A stretch of 11,143 bases of DNA from an uncultured archaeon (GCA_964534625.1 CAZHRF010000070.1:1-11143); one strand, 5' to 3'; counted from the stretch's first letter, positions 6,455-10,982 are shown. Notes: a model not told the origin generated them from the sequence alone. Program-made: numbers and translations.

Positions 6455-7564
6455 TTAATTGTCTATTTTTTCTAATAATCCAGCCTCTATAGTAATACCT
6501 GGACCAAATGCTGCAGCAAAAATCTTACCTTGTTGATTGGAATCTTGGCGAATATCCTCTAAAACAAACATTATAGTTACAGAGCTCATATTACCATATT
6601 CTTGCATGATATGATATGATGATTGTAAATCTTTTGGCGTGATATCCAACGCTTCTTCTACTCGCTCTAAAATCGCCTTACCGCCCGGGTGTATGGCCCA
6701 CACATCAATATCTTTTTTTGTTATATTTGCTACAGTAAATAAAGAGTCCATGATCGAGGTAATATTGTCTTTAACTATAGTAGGAACATATTTTGATAAT
6801 TTCATTATAAAACCTGTTTGTCCAATATACCAAGCCATATCCTCTTCACTATCATTAGCAATAGATGTCATAAAATCATGAAGTATGAACTTTGCCTCAT
6901 TAAAATCTCCTTGATGAGCTGATATAATGGCAGCTGACACCCCATCTGCAAAAATGGCATTAGAGATACATTGATCAAGTGTTCTTGTTTGTTGAAAATG
7001 TATAGAACAAAGTTCAACATTAACGACTAATACTCGTGCATTGGGTTCAGAAAGGCAGATATTTCGAGCAAGTTTTAAAGCTGGAAAAGCCCCCTGACAC
7101 CCCATAAATCCTAAATGGTAGCGGTGAATGTGTGGAGAAAGATTAAACTCTCTAACAATGTAGAAATCAAGACCTGGTGCCATAAAACCCGTACAACTGA
7201 CAGTAATAATATGAGTTATTAGTTGTTGATTAAATTCAGCATTGTTGTTAAATAAATTTCTTATGGCTTTTATCGTTAATTCTTTTGCTTTATCGATGTA
7301 TAAGTTATTTCTTTGTTCTGTTGTAGGTTCGGGCTTCAAACTTTTGTTTTTTGGATAGAAGGTATGATTTTCAGGTTTCTTATCGTAATCTTCAATCACA
7401 GTATGTCTCTTTTTGATGTTTGTTCCTTTATAAACTCTATTGAGGAATAATCTGTCTTTCAATGAAGTTGCTGTTAGCTCTTTAATTTTTTTTAAAGCAA
7501 ATTTTTGAGTATAAGATTTGTCTGGTACGACTGTTTCTATTTTGTGTAAGAAGACTCGATTCAA
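6455..7564 (-). CDS. Type III polyketide synthase (chalcone/stilbene synthase superfamily)
   Basis: Complete catalytic triad Cys156 (GFMGCQG), His292 (WAIHPGG) and Asn325 (YGNMSS), plus VSCTG, VELCSIH, AIFADG and AFGPG. TTG start with GGTGAT 7 nt upstream. Confidence 0.96.
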   Translation of the reverse strand: MNRVFLHKIETVVPDKSYTQKFALKKIKELTATSLKDRLFLNRVYKGTNIKKRHTVIEDYDKKPENHTFYPKNKSLKPEPTTEQRNNLYIDKAKELTIKAIRNLFNNNAEFNQQLITHIITVSCTGFMAPGLDFYIVREFNLSPHIHRYHLGFMGCQGAFPALKLARNICLSEPNARVLVVNVELCSIHFQQTRTLDQCISNAIFADGVSAAIISAHQGDFNEAKFILHDFMTSIANDSEEDMAWYIGQTGFIMKLSKYVPTIVKDNITSIMDSLFTVANITKKDIDVWAIHPGGKAILERVEEALDITPKDLQSSYHIMQEYGNMSSVTIMFVLEDIRQDSNQQGKIFAAAFGPGITIEAGLLEKIDN

Positions 7565-7571
7565 TGATTAT

Positions 7572-7577
7572 ATCACC
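7572..7577 (-). promoter_or_regulatory. Archaeal-type Shine-Dalgarno motif (GGTGAT) for the PKS gene
   Basis: Minus strand reads aatGGTGATataatcaTTG. Confidence 0.65.
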
Positions 7578-7607
7578 ATTTTTATATTATTCCATTCATT
7601 TTCTTTC

Positions 7608-7624: not shown

Positions 7625-7805
7625 TTCAAATTTTATTTTTATAGGGCTTACTAAATAGACAGTTAGTATTTTAAATTTTGGGGGTGAATACCATATATTA
7701 AACAACCATATTTTTTATGTGAATTATTATGTATATTAAAATTAATAATATATTAATTGAAATTGATATATAATAAAATTTAAGATAGTCCATTCTTACA
7801 TTTTA

Positions 7806-10800
7806 ATGGGGAACATGGTTTCAATCTTTACATTCAAAAATAAATTTCATGGTTTTATCGAATTTTTCTTTCTAATTTCTTTATTCTCCCTCAGTACTCA
7901 AATGGGAATAATTCATGTTTTTTCAAATCAAACAGAAATTAATGGAAATATTAATGATATAAATCAACGTAATACTAGTGAATTGATCAGTAACAATAAA
8001 GATCAAAAACCAAATAACATGGAACAATTGGATTCGTCCATAACAAACGAACTAGTAAAGTATTCTGATGAGTTTATTATAAATATCACAAAAAATGGTC
8101 AATATCAATCCGGTTATAATCTAATAATATTAGAGAAAAGAGCTAAAGGACAGTTGTTGAAATATCTCATGATTATATCAACAGAAGGAGATATCATTGC
8201 AAATAAGACTTTACATCCCAATGCCATGGCATCGTTTTATCCTGCTCGTTTCATCAATTCAACAACAGTTTTACTAGGCAATGGAGCTCTAGGTGGTGCA
8301 GCACTTTGGAATTACGAAACAGATACCATGATAAACTTAAATATTCGAGGAACACATGAATATGAATATAATTGTAAAGATGAAACAATTTTTACAATAA
8401 GCCGATATGAAAAAGAAGGTTTTTGGCATGATTCTATTGAAGAATATACTTTAAACGGTGAAAAAATTTGGGAAAAGAAAACGGAAGATTTTATTCCAGT
8501 TGAACACATGTGTTCTTATTGTACGGGAAATGAAGTAGGGCATGGAAATAGTATTTTTTATAATCCAGAAGAAGAGACAATTATATTCAATGCTAGAAAT
8601 GTCAATACTTTCTATAAAGTAAATCACATTAATGGAGAAATTATTTGGGCTTTAGGGGAATACGGGGATTTTCAACTTTTCGATGAAAACGGAAACCCAA
8701 AAGAGTCTCTTTTTTATCATGCTCATTCCGTAGAACAGATTAGTGATGATACGTTTATTTTGTTCGATAATGATTTACATAATAAAACAAATCAGTACAA
8801 TGAACGTTCTAGAATTGTTGAAATTACATTAAATGAAAAAACAATGACTGCAAATGTAAGTTGGGTGTGGGAAGGACATGAATATCTTTATAGTAGATAT
8901 TGGGGTGATGCTGAACGATTGCCAAATGGTAACAGATTAGGAGTATTTGGTTTTATGTTCGGTTCTGATTCTGAATTAGGGAGTCGATTAATCGAAGTGA
9001 ATGAAGTAGGAGATATTGTTTGGGAAATGAATTTTGCTCCCTCTAAGTATGAGTATGGATTTTATCGTGCAGAAAGATTCAATTTTAACCCTATAATTAC
9101 ACCTCAAGATGAACTTATAGGAAAAGAAAACACTAGTATAGATATAGAGTGGGAAGTCTTTTATAATATAAAAACAAGAAGTAATATCTCAGGCCTATAT
9201 GGCCTATATATAAATGATACAGTCATAGAACAAGGAAAACATGAGTTTAACAAGTTTTGGCAAGCATCTTTAATTAGAACTGAGTTACCTCCTTTAGAAC
9301 TTGGTTATTACAATGTTTCTTTACTTTTATTCGATAAGTCTGGGCATTTTTCGATGAGCAGTTTAAACTTAAGCATTGTATCTTCTTATATTGAACGTGA
9401 GGGTCCTTTAGAAATTGAGAAAGGGCAAAATAATTCAATTATAACTTGGAAAGGTTTTACTTCATCCCCATTAAGTTATGAATTGTTTATAAATGATGTT
9501 AAAGAAGCGGAACAAATCTGGCAAGGAGAAAATATATACTATGATCTAAATGAACTACCTTTAGGTGATCATAACTTACAAATTATTTTTTATAATAAAA
9601 GCAATATGCTCTTTGATGATTATTTTAAGGTACAGACATTTCCATTAGCTGCACCTTATTTCAGCAAAGAACCACAGGATCAAACGATTGCATGGAATGA
9701 TCCGTTGATTTTAGAGTGGAAAATTTTCGATAATACACCTAAGGATTGGAAATTATTTGTTAATGATAAATCAGTAAAAAACAGTGTTTGGGTAGATAAA
9801 AATTTCTCGGTTGCATGGACAGTCACTAATTATAATGAAGGATTATATAATATTAGTTTAGTAGCTTATGACAATGCAGGATTAAAGACAATCTCTTGTG
9901 TACAAATTGAAATTCTTCCTCCAACTATCCCCGTTATAATTGACATTATTATGCACAGTGAACTTAAATGGGGAGAATCAAAACCATTCGTGTGGGAAGT
10001 ACATGGTGGTAAAAACTGGACCTTGTCTGTTAATAACAACATCTATTCTTCTGGATCAATACACGATTTCCAAATTAGTCTGATTATTGATGAATGGAAC
10101 CCTGAAATCTTTAATTTCGGAGTAAACAATCTGTCTTTACAAGTGGATGGGTTTAATTATAAATCATCGTTCAGAAACTTTTCAATAAAAATAGCATATG
10201 AAACTGGTGATTCCTATGCGAATGAGTTGATTGAATCCATGTCTATTTTTTATAGCAATGGAAAAAATGTATTAGGGGAACCAAATGGTCGATATGTAAG
10301 AATATTTCGAGATTACGCAAATGGTTATATTACATTAGATATGGGAGAGTCAGAAGAAATCATCGATAAAGAAGGGTATGATTTTATTGTCTATTCACCT
10401 TCAGGTTATTATCAAGTTTTAGTAACCAACAATTTATCAAAACCATTCAAACATATAGGAGAAGGAGAAGGAAATACACAATTTGATTTAAGTTCCATAG
10501 GTATTAATGAGGTTAGATATGTTCGTCTAGCACTTAAATCAACAGATGAAGTGCATATAGATGCAATCGAAGCCTACCATTATAATTCACCTATTATTGC
10601 CAGAGAACCAATAATATACAAAGAAGAAACAGAAAAAGAAATAGTAATTAGGGGGAGAAAAAATGTTACAATAGAATGGAATGTTTTTGATGACCACCCA
10701 AAAAATTATTCTATATATGTGAACTTTAAACGCGTAGAATTTGAAAGATGGGATGGAAATAATATAACTTTCAACTATGATTTTAATAAGACTGGAACTA

Positions 10801-10982
10801 TAAAAGTAAAACTAATTGTATTTAATATGTTTGGCAATCATGCAAAAGATAAGATTATTGTACATGTGATTTCTTTAAGAGGAAATTTATCTCCTCCTAT
10901 TGTAGTTGGAATGTTGATTGGAGGTTTATTGTTATCTTCTTTTGCTGGGTGGATTTATATGAAGAAAAAAAGTTTCCCTTAA
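7806..10982 (+). CDS. Secreted, C-terminally membrane-anchored aryl-sulfate sulfotransferase (ASST) with Ig-like repeats
   Basis: N-terminal hydrophobic signal-like segment. ASST beta-propeller motifs TH184E, H246-G-N248-S, AR264N, GEIIWALG, HAH307S, LFDN, SRIVEI, WGDAERLPNGN and YRAER. Then about 5 Ig-like units (W...D..P..W/Y.L.VN...W...G.YN..L...D..G), one inserted jelly-roll-like domain, and a TM helix followed by KKK. Start may be ATG 7815. Confidence 0.88.
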   Translation: MGNMVSIFTFKNKFHGFIEFFFLISLFSLSTQMGIIHVFSNQTEINGNINDINQRNTSELISNNKDQKPNNMEQLDSSITNELVKYSDEFIINITKNGQYQSGYNLIILEKRAKGQLLKYLMIISTEGDIIANKTLHPNAMASFYPARFINSTTVLLGNGALGGAALWNYETDTMINLNIRGTHEYEYNCKDETIFTISRYEKEGFWHDSIEEYTLNGEKIWEKKTEDFIPVEHMCSYCTGNEVGHGNSIFYNPEEETIIFNARNVNTFYKVNHINGEIIWALGEYGDFQLFDENGNPKESLFYHAHSVEQISDDTFILFDNDLHNKTNQYNERSRIVEITLNEKTMTANVSWVWEGHEYLYSRYWGDAERLPNGNRLGVFGFMFGSDSELGSRLIEVNEVGDIVWEMNFAPSKYEYGFYRAERFNFNPIITPQDELIGKENTSIDIEWEVFYNIKTRSNISGLYGLYINDTVIEQGKHEFNKFWQASLIRTELPPLELGYYNVSLLLFDKSGHFSMSSLNLSIVSSYIEREGPLEIEKGQNNSIITWKGFTSSPLSYELFINDVKEAEQIWQGENIYYDLNELPLGDHNLQIIFYNKSNMLFDDYFKVQTFPLAAPYFSKEPQDQTIAWNDPLILEWKIFDNTPKDWKLFVNDKSVKNSVWVDKNFSVAWTVTNYNEGLYNISLVAYDNAGLKTISCVQIEILPPTIPVIIDIIMHSELKWGESKPFVWEVHGGKNWTLSVNNNIYSSGSIHDFQISLIIDEWNPEIFNFGVNNLSLQVDGFNYKSSFRNFSIKIAYETGDSYANELIESMSIFYSNGKNVLGEPNGRYVRIFRDYANGYITLDMGESEEIIDKEGYDFIVYSPSGYYQVLVTNNLSKPFKHIGEGEGNTQFDLSSIGINEVRYVRLALKSTDEVHIDAIEAYHYNSPIIAREPIIYKEETEKEIVIRGRKNVTIEWNVFDDHPKNYSIYVNFKRVEFERWDGNNITFNYDFNKTGTIKVKLIVFNMFGNHAKDKIIVHVISLRGNLSPPIVVGMLIGGLLLSSFAGWIYMKKKSFP

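Follow-up and report, generated by a model that had tools for sequence, protein, structure and literature searches.

The closest described counterpart of the locus analysed here is the two-step sulfation pathway of caprazamycin biosynthesis in Streptomyces sp. MK730-62F2, in which the type III polyketide synthase (PKS) Cpz6, the PAPS-dependent sulfotransferase Cpz8 and the ASST-type enzyme Cpz4 act together (Tang et al. 2013, as described in PMC6731281 and PMC13426309). There, a PAPS-dependent sulfotransferase charges a polyketide, and an ASST passes the sulfate to a non-phenolic acceptor: Cpz4 sulfates a sugar hydroxyl using a pyrone sulfate. A second related system is the adp cluster of Streptomyces davaonensis, where a type III PKS, the PAPS sulfotransferase AdpST and a PAPS cassette produce sulfated alkylresorcinols, the sulfated adipostatins (PMC12135136), without any ASST. 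The periplasmic E. coli AssT (EcAST, PDB 3ELQ/3ETS) is not linked to a PKS or to a PAPS-dependent sulfotransferase. Finally, type III PKSs are known from the bacterial alkylresorcinol and alkylpyrone operons (srsABC, arsABCD) and from M. tuberculosis (PKS18).

The window, that is, the whole stretch of DNA that was analysed, is a contig of 11,143 nucleotides from an Asgard archaeal genome (GCA_964534625.1, contig CAZHRF010000070.1, hereafter C70). A sequence-only reading had pointed out an intact type III PKS head-to-head with an ASST, and had proposed that a cytoplasmic PKS supplies a lipophilic phenol or pyrone to a surface-tethered ASST. Both open reading frames were confirmed, and the region reads as follows.

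6455..7564, minus strand: type III PKS, 369 aa, TTG start, no TM segment (cytoplasmic), with the triad C156/H292/N325.
7565..7805: divergent intergenic spacer of 241 bp, 18.7% GC, which presumably holds the promoters of both genes.
7806..10982, plus strand: long surface ASST, 1058 aa, with an N-terminal anchor, the ASST propeller, Ig-like repeats, domain X, an Ig-like repeat and a C-terminal TM with a basic tail.
7857..7913, plus strand: N-terminal hydrophobic segment of the ASST (residues 18-36), a signal peptide or signal anchor preceded by basic residues.
8079..9080, plus strand: ASST catalytic domain, a predicted beta-propeller (about residues 92-425), with H184, H246, N248, R264 and the catalytic H307.
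10206..10592, plus strand: domain X (residues 801-929), a conserved predicted beta-sandwich.
10899..10955, plus strand: C-terminal TM helix (residues 1032-1050) followed by YMKKKSFP.
11091..11143: terminus of an IS200/IS605-type element, present in more than 20 copies, at which the contig breaks.

The PKS matched Chal_sti_synt_N (E 1.6e-22, 80.5 bits) and Chal_sti_synt_C (E 5.9e-29, 101.5 bits), both against cut-offs of 27. C156 lies in GFMGCQGAF, H292 in WAIHPGG and N325 in YGNMSS, and these align with the triad motifs of PKS18 and Steely1, its nearest solved relatives. As these are long-chain acyl-CoA-primed enzymes, an amphiphilic alkylpyrone or alkylresorcinol is the likeliest product. No methyltransferase, hydroxylase or type I FAS partner is adjacent to the PKS; the tailoring partners here are sulfotransferases.

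The ASST matched PF05935 (E 1.8e-16, 60.6 bits against a cut-off of 24.2), although the match covers only residues 246-414, corresponding to profile positions 176-367 of 374. A profile of 14 Asgard ASSTs aligned H246, N248 and R264 with H356, N358 and R374 of E. coli AssT, and H307 with its catalytic H436 (residue roles from PMC13426309). H184, H246, R264 and H307 are invariant in the 14 sequences, and N248 is nearly so. H184 aligns with an HD motif of Cpz4 and is a plausible equivalent of EcAST His252. The closest solved relative of the ASST is Cpz4, both by profile (9KF4/9KF6, E 4e-19) and by fold: with an AlphaFold model of the catalytic domain (pLDDT 85), the best Foldseek hits were Cpz4 (9KF4/9KF6, E 6e-18), then EcAST (3ELQ/3ETS, E 1e-10 to 2e-11, TM about 0.57), well ahead of generic propellers. 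Identity to E. coli AssT is only about 15%, and the Asgard enzymes are anchored at both ends and carry extra domains. Domain X is also found as stand-alone anchored proteins of 204-290 aa beside genes for ASSTs fused to an SCP2 domain (SCP2-ASST, see below). It is possibly CBM32/F5-8-type-C-like, but this assignment is weak and only a lead (E about 5e-3, model pLDDT 70).

We next asked whether the rest of a caprazamycin-type system could be found in the genome (3.37 Mb, 90% complete), since the sequence-only reading had noted that the window lacks a PAPS-dependent sulfotransferase, and that adjacency could be fortuitous if ASST paralogues were numerous. The genome has one type III PKS and only two ASST genes, so that paralogue number does not explain the adjacency. 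The second ASST (102 bits with PF05935) carries an SCP2 lipid-binding domain, scoring above the Pfam cut-off, and lies at the start of another contig, C41, beside a PAPS-type sulfotransferase (ST) of the Sulfotransfer_3/Sulfotransfer_1 type, with the 5'-PSB (GLARSGTT) and RNP 3'-PB motifs. Interestingly, C41 starts with an IS605 OrfB fragment, and the end of the window is the matching IS terminus. In full copies of the element (contigs C16 and C7), this terminus lies 0.5-0.8 kb from sequence identical to the start of C41, in the matching orientation. A C70-C41 join is compatible with these data but remains unproven, because about 5 other contig ends carry the same repeat. A fused sat-cysC, a CysQ-like gene and TauE genes were found on a further contig, C45, and not next to the PKS and ST as in the adp cluster.

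The PKS, the ST, the SCP2-ASST and a further ASST were then found contiguous, in different gene orders, in three other Asgard genomes, designated G015, L071 and G088. Contig C102 of G015 carries, within 6.9 kb, an ASST of 537 aa, a domain X protein of 204 aa, the PKS, the SCP2-ASST and the ST. In L071 the order is long ASST (about 1050 aa), ST, PKS and SCP2-ASST, and contig C126 of G088 carries the SCP2-ASST, the long ASST, the ST and the PKS. The long ASSTs of L071 and G088 are full-length orthologues of the window's gene, at 39% identity, and the PKS is also divergent from an ASST gene in G015 and L071. In a fourth genome, L028, the PKS is flanked by two ASSTs. The trio of long ASST, SCP2-ASST and ST is contiguous in G009, G011 and on contig C32 of G015. 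The ST and an ASST are adjacent in at least 19 genomes, and in one locus (L072) they are followed directly by sat and cysC. In a tree of the Asgard PKS clade, the cluster-embedded PKSs (G088, L071, G000/G015) occupy the basal branches.

Co-occurrence was measured among 400 Asgard genomes. The PKS was present in 22, an ASST of the SCP2-ASST clade in 37, and both in 19, meaning that 19 of 22 genomes with the PKS carry the SCP2-ASST, against 18 of 378 without it (Fisher P = 1.6e-19 overall, 1e-5 within family f1 and 2.6e-7 within the f31 group). All 6 PKS-bearing genera are among the 9 SCP2-ASST-bearing genera of 85. The ST was found in 14 of 22 genomes with the PKS, against 74 of 378 without it (P = 1.7e-5). 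These statistics are not corrected for phylogeny, and most of the genomes are incomplete MAGs. Moreover, direct PKS-ASST adjacency is the minority state among Asgard PKS homologues: it was absent from all 9 clade-B genomes examined and from about 25 loci at 57-65% identity, where the PKS sits in unrelated, variable contexts. Conversely, eighteen genomes (for example in family f5 and genus g79) have the SCP2-ASST, mostly with ST, but no type III PKS, and ST alone is common in f20, which lacks both. The module therefore does not need this PKS.

Hydropathy analysis bore out the surface-tethered topology of the ASSTs and the cytoplasmic character of the PKS and ST. Every full-length ASST examined has a C-terminal TM with a basic tail, and all but two pass the threshold for an N-terminal hydrophobic anchor, whereas the PKS of this window and every ST have no segment above the threshold.

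The interpretation given by the sequence-only reading is thus supported by the genomic checks it had proposed, and the window holds two of the four genes of a conserved Asgard sulfation cluster, made of a cytoplasmic type III PKS, a cytoplasmic PAPS-dependent ST, a surface-anchored SCP2-ASST fusion of about 705 aa, and a surface-anchored long ASST of about 1050 aa. By analogy with Cpz6, Cpz8 and Cpz4, we propose, with moderate confidence and with every chemical step, the way the carrier crosses the membrane and the acceptor being inferred, that the PKS condenses an acyl-CoA with malonyl-CoA into an amphiphilic alkylpyrone or alkylresorcinol, which the ST would sulfate using PAPS made by Sat-CysC. 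The sulfated polyketide would then reach the outer face of the membrane, although no exporter or flippase for such a carrier is identified. There, the SCP2 domain would capture its alkyl tail, and the ASSTs would take the sulfuryl group onto the catalytic His (H307 here) and pass it to extracellular acceptors, most likely surface glycans. A possible parallel, which is only a lead, is offered by the SCP2-like domains of alkyl sulfatases (Pfam Alkyl_sulf_C, SdsA1-type), in which an SCP2-fold lipid-binding domain would be attached to an enzyme acting on the sulfate ester of an amphiphile, but with a metallo-beta-lactamase sulfatase rather than an ASST propeller as catalytic domain. Compared to the caprazamycin system, the same three enzyme classes are clustered together, the ASST being the component for which relatedness (to Cpz4) is seen by profile and fold. 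The differences are that the host is archaeal, that no antibiotic cluster surrounds the genes, that two or three ASST classes are present per cluster, all with predicted membrane-anchor segments that put them outside the cell, that one ASST is fused to SCP2 while another carries Ig-like repeats and domain X, and that the module often exists without the PKS.

Alternatively, it is possible, though less likely, that the sulfated polyketide is itself the end product. The PKS would make a phenolic lipid, sulfated by the ST and/or the surface ASSTs into an anionic sulfolipid of the envelope, as in the adp cluster, and the ASSTs would redistribute sulfate among such lipids rather than pass it to glycans. 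The SCP2 domain fits a lipid substrate as well as a lipid donor, and the same clustering and co-occurrence data fit this reading. However, it does not explain why a PAPS-independent ASST is paired with a PAPS-dependent ST in at least 19 genomes, why the ASSTs are extracellular while the ST is cytoplasmic, why two or three ASST classes with a possible glycan-binding domain X accompany the pair, or why the ASSTs are nearest to Cpz4. The ASSTs, absent from the adp cluster, are here the most constant partners of the PKS.

A more doubtful alternative is that the ASSTs handle environmental phenols and aryl sulfates, for scavenging or detoxifying sediment phenolics, comparable to the periplasmic ASSTs of gut bacteria, the PKS having a separate role, for example in making a membrane or redox lipid, and being merely carried in the same genomic island in a few lineages. 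ASSTs are indeed greatly expanded in this family, with up to 12 copies per genome, and the distribution of stand-alone PKS genes and of PKS-less modules reported above is in line with this view. Nevertheless, PKS presence is almost completely nested in SCP2-ASST presence in three separate families, the four genes are contiguous in rearranged orders in distant lineages, and in this genome the PKS abuts one of only two ASSTs. The cytoplasmic ST partner and the link to sat and cysC also point to an endogenous supply of sulfate rather than scavenging. Finally, an adjacency due to chance, mis-binning or mis-assembly is very unlikely: although the contig is short (11 kb) and ends in a repeat, and the MAG is 90% complete with 2.6% contamination, the same neighbourhood occurs in independent assemblies from other samples and lineages (G015 and a Logan contig, L071, G088 and L028), and with 2 ASSTs in 3.4 Mb the chance of one lying within about 2 kb of the PKS is roughly 0.2%.

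The PKS and the surface ASST of this window thus belong to a recurring four-gene set that most resembles the caprazamycin two-step sulfation pathway, which suggests that these Asgard archaea use a home-made lipid-like carrier to take activated sulfate to the cell surface. In this way, sulfation would happen where PAPS is not available.

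Open reading frames were first located on the contig, which is C70 of this genome (G000), 11,143 bp long with about 31% GC. The features used in this analysis are the following.

1172-1804, plus strand, a 210-aa protein with a C-terminal RING-finger match (zf-RING_2, 26.7 bits, just under the 27.3 cut-off)
5274-6389, plus strand, an Old-Yellow-Enzyme-family (OYE) flavin oxidoreductase with a C-terminal Cys cluster, convergent with the PKS (65 bp between the stop codons)
6455-7564, minus strand, the type III PKS
7806-10982, plus strand, a 1058-aa protein whose residues 246-414 match PF05935
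11091-11143, the terminus of an IS200/IS605-type element

The product of the minus-strand ORF matches Chal_sti_synt_N and Chal_sti_synt_C above the Pfam cut-offs, with C156, H292 and N325 placed in the GFMGCQGAF, WAIHPGG and YGNMSS motifs. Its best solved relatives are Steely1 and M. tuberculosis PKS18, both primed by acyl-CoA. In the ASST, H184, H246, N248, R264 and H307 are found at the positions given by the sequence-only reading, which had described an intact PKS placed head-to-head with an ASST across a spacer of 241 bp. This spacer has 18.7% GC, and the observation is confirmed in every detail. The OYE-family reductase was not found beside the PKS in any relative, and is not counted as part of the system. 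The RING-finger match is a eukaryote-like signature typical of Asgard archaea.

We next asked whether the rest of a sulfation system could be found in the same genome. Only one type III PKS and two ASSTs are present, so that paralogue load cannot explain the adjacency, and chance adjacency on this ground was rejected. The second ASST lies at the start of contig C41. It is about 705 aa long from its likely GTG start, and has an SCP2 lipid-transfer domain in front of the ASST propeller. A 389-aa Sulfotransfer_3/Sulfotransfer_1 protein (ST) follows 25 nt later, with a GLARSGTT 5′-phosphosulfate loop and an RNP 3′-phosphate motif. Comparison of the ST with the PDB gave only weak hits, to mycobacterial Stf-like proteins and TPSTs (E 1e-3 to 1e-2), enough to see the PAPS-binding motifs but not to name an orthologue. 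Contig C41 begins inside an IS605 OrfB/TnpB gene (positions 1-456), and the last 53 bp of the window are the terminus of the same element, which is present in more than 20 copies and in which many contigs break. In the full copies on contigs C16 and C7, the two pieces lie 0.5-0.8 kb apart, in the orientation expected if C70 runs into C41. About five other contig ends carry the same repeat, so the join is compatible but unproven. Directly after the ST, at 4104-10040 of C41 on the minus strand, lies an oxyanion-type ABC operon made of an SBP_bac_11 binding protein, a fused double permease, two ATPases (one with TOBE) and a PhoU_div/DUF47 gene. It could be a sulfate importer, but it is not conserved next to the module in other genomes. 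PAPS supply is present on contig C45, where a PUA-Sat-CysC fusion lies beside an inositol-monophosphatase-family (CysQ-like) gene and two TauE genes.

Relatives of the locus were then searched for. The closest PKS (74% identity) is found in G015, a MAG labelled Heimdallarchaeota, where it is embedded within 6.9 kb in the order ASST (537 aa), a 204-aa anchored protein, PKS, SCP2-ASST (704 aa) and ST (392 aa). A Logan contig repeats this arrangement. Searches of metagenome and genome collections with the PKS alone gave only 7 and 15 loci, and no new linked cluster. Starting from the ST side was more productive, and brought in locus L071 (GCA_048938655.1), where an ASST of 1050 aa, the ST, the PKS and the SCP2-ASST are contiguous, as well as contig C126 of genome G088, with SCP2-ASST, a PKS relic, ASST1050, ST and PKS. 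The G088 relic is short (PKS N-terminal residues 2-76, at 5161-5385), and lies between the SCP2-ASST and the long ASST. A second PKS copy (10743-11174), cut by the contig end, is next to the ST, and this looks like a trace of rearrangement within the cluster. Interestingly, a zf-RING gene similar to that of the window, together with an actin homologue, lies next to the cluster in L071 (12813-15111). In locus L028 (GCA_016840245.1), the PKS has one ASST immediately downstream and another 3.8 kb upstream. Gene orders differ among all of these loci, which is what selection for linkage produces, rather than plain inheritance of one arrangement.

The long ASSTs of L071 and G088 align with the protein of the window over residues 61-1043, at 39% identity. 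The ASST of the window is therefore the orthologue of a fixed component of the cluster. The trio ASST1050, SCP2-ASST and ST is also contiguous in genomes G009 and G011, and on contig C32 of G015. On this last contig a second G015 copy of the ST (7-662) is interrupted by TAA stops, and is a pseudogene, beside an intact SCP2-ASST and two long ASSTs, whereas the copy in the PKS cluster (contig C102) is intact. In locus L072, also found from the ST side, the ST and ASST are followed directly by sat and cysC.

Adjacency of PKS and ASST is nevertheless not universal. In all 9 clade-B genomes of the sister genus that were examined, the PKS (about 60% identity) sits between a DUF72 gene and a ferredoxin/MBL/IMPDH block. 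The ASST family is strongly expanded in this sister genus, with up to 12 copies per genome, often in tandem arrays of 530-550-aa anchored forms (for example at 178-186 kb of contig C9 in genome G012), compared to only two in the present genome. In about 25 further loci, from MAGs labelled Thor-, Hermod- and Promethearchaeota, the neighbours vary and no ASST catalytic domain is nearby. In several of the Thor-labelled loci (L049, L054, L057, L060, L062 and L063), a small ORF just upstream of the PKS resembles the last Ig-like repeat plus TM anchor of the long ASST (30-34% identity over 70-100 aa), but this is probably a generic surface-protein module. A stand-alone SCP2 protein and an ABC-2 transporter were seen 4-5 kb from the PKS in locus L029, as a single case.

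To examine the phyletic pattern, the three genes were scored in a sample of 400 Asgard genomes. An ST orthologue was found in 88 genomes, the PKS in 22, and an ASST of the SCP2-ASST clade in 37. Nineteen of the 22 PKS-bearing genomes have the SCP2-ASST, against 18 of the 378 without the PKS (Fisher P = 1.6e-19), and the three exceptions are MAGs that are 87-88% complete. The pattern repeats within one family, f1 (9/12 against 0/19, P = 1e-5), and within the group designated f31 (9/9 against 11/80, P = 2.6e-7). At genus level, all 6 PKS-bearing genera are among the 9 SCP2-ASST-bearing genera of 85 (hypergeometric P about 2e-7). For PKS against ST, the counts are 14/22 against 74/378 (P = 1.7e-5). 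These tests ignore phylogeny and MAG incompleteness. Even so, the nesting is asymmetric in an informative way, as the PKS almost never occurs without the module, while the module often occurs without the PKS (in family f5 and genus g79, with the ST alone in f20). In the PKS tree rooted on spirochaete sequences, the cluster-embedded genes (G088, L071, and G000 with G015) take the basal branches of the Asgard clade, with supports of 83-99 SH-aLRT, which is consistent with an ancestral cluster location and later dispersal.

We next analysed the proteins themselves. A profile built from 14 Asgard ASST domains finds Streptomyces Cpz4 (9KF4/9KF6) at E 4e-19 and E. coli AssT at 6e-8. It aligns H246/N248/R264 with AssT H356/N358/R374, and H307 with the sulfo-histidine H436 (residue roles from PMC13426309). 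These residues and H184 are invariant or nearly invariant. An AlphaFold model of residues 60-520 (pLDDT 85) matches Cpz4 first (E 6e-18) and AssT next (E 1e-10 to 2e-11), well ahead of generic propellers. All full-length ASSTs examined, in all three size classes, have by hydropathy a C-terminal TM helix with a Lys/Arg tail, and all but two also pass the threshold for an N-terminal hydrophobic segment. Their bulk is therefore predicted to lie outside the cell. The PKS of the window and every ST have no segment above the threshold. The density of N-glycosylation sequons was also tried as a test of topology, but the roughly 2-fold enrichment seen in the ASSTs was found in the cytoplasmic PKS as well, so that this test does not discriminate.

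The long ASST also carries Ig/PKD-like repeats and a 130-aa domain, called domain X (residues 801-929), which recurs in every long ASST and as stand-alone anchored proteins of 204-290 aa next to SCP2-ASST genes. The model of domain X (pLDDT 70) resembles CBM32/F5-8-type-C sugar-binding modules only weakly in Foldseek searches (E about 5e-3 to 2e-2, TM about 0.4), and atlas feature hits were below 0.9, so this assignment is no more than a lead. In genomes G011 and G012 (loci L036, 13318-15510, and L037, 5477-8237), the ST is flanked by NeuB and a CMP-nonulosonate synthetase/PseG-like fusion, which hints that the acceptor of the sulfation module is a nonulosonic-acid-bearing surface glycan. A CysQ-like gene lies nearby on contig C32 of G015, and probably also in G011, where a partial ORF falls in the same similarity cluster.

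The caprazamycin pathway is the only described case in which a type III PKS, a PAPS sulfotransferase and an ASST work together. Cpz8 sulfates a triketide pyrone, and Cpz4 moves that sulfate to a sugar hydroxyl (PMC6731281; PMC13426309). The Asgard cluster has the same three enzyme classes, with a Cpz4-like ASST. It differs by a cytoplasm/surface split and by a lipid-binding domain on one ASST. The most economical reading is a relay, in which the PKS would make an amphiphilic phenol or pyrone, the ST would charge it with sulfate from PAPS, and the carrier would reach the outer leaflet, where the ASSTs would discharge it onto extracellular acceptors. We hold this reading, which in its main lines is also one of the two offered by the sequence-only analysis, to be somewhat more likely than not, its chemical steps being inferred. 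PKS-less genomes with the module imply that another phenol, made or scavenged, can serve in the same role, and the PKS is therefore an accessory supplier rather than a core part. Alternatively, it may be that the sulfated polyketide is the end product, as in the adp cluster (PMC12135136). We consider this main rival unlikely. It does not explain the constant pairing of a PAPS-dependent enzyme with PAPS-independent ones on opposite sides of the membrane.

The existence of a conserved gene set is well supported. In the literature searched, we found no paper that links Asgard archaea with ASSTs or assigns a role to their type III PKS. Type III PKSs in archaea have no assigned role, and the present analysis ties the Asgard PKS to a specific, testable pathway. 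If the relay model holds, it would be the first example of the caprazamycin-type two-step sulfation outside actinomycete antibiotic clusters, and the first predicted function for an archaeal type III PKS. It would also offer a way to sulfate molecules outside the cell, where PAPS is absent. The ASSTs are PAPS-independent and may accept sugars, so they may also be useful biocatalysts. A bolder version, doubtful at present but not excluded, is that a self-made polyketide sulfate acts as a membrane-permeant carrier of activated sulfate, charged inside the cell by the PAPS sulfotransferase and discharged outside by the surface-anchored ASSTs, one of which would fish the carrier out of the membrane with its SCP2 domain, while another would hold glycans with a CBM-like domain. 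The result would be a sulfated, eukaryote-like glycocalyx built without any PAPS transporter. Sulfated surface glycans are a hallmark of eukaryotic cells, so a dedicated surface sulfation system in the closest archaeal relatives of eukaryotes, if the relay model holds, would bear on how the pre-eukaryotic cell surface looked.
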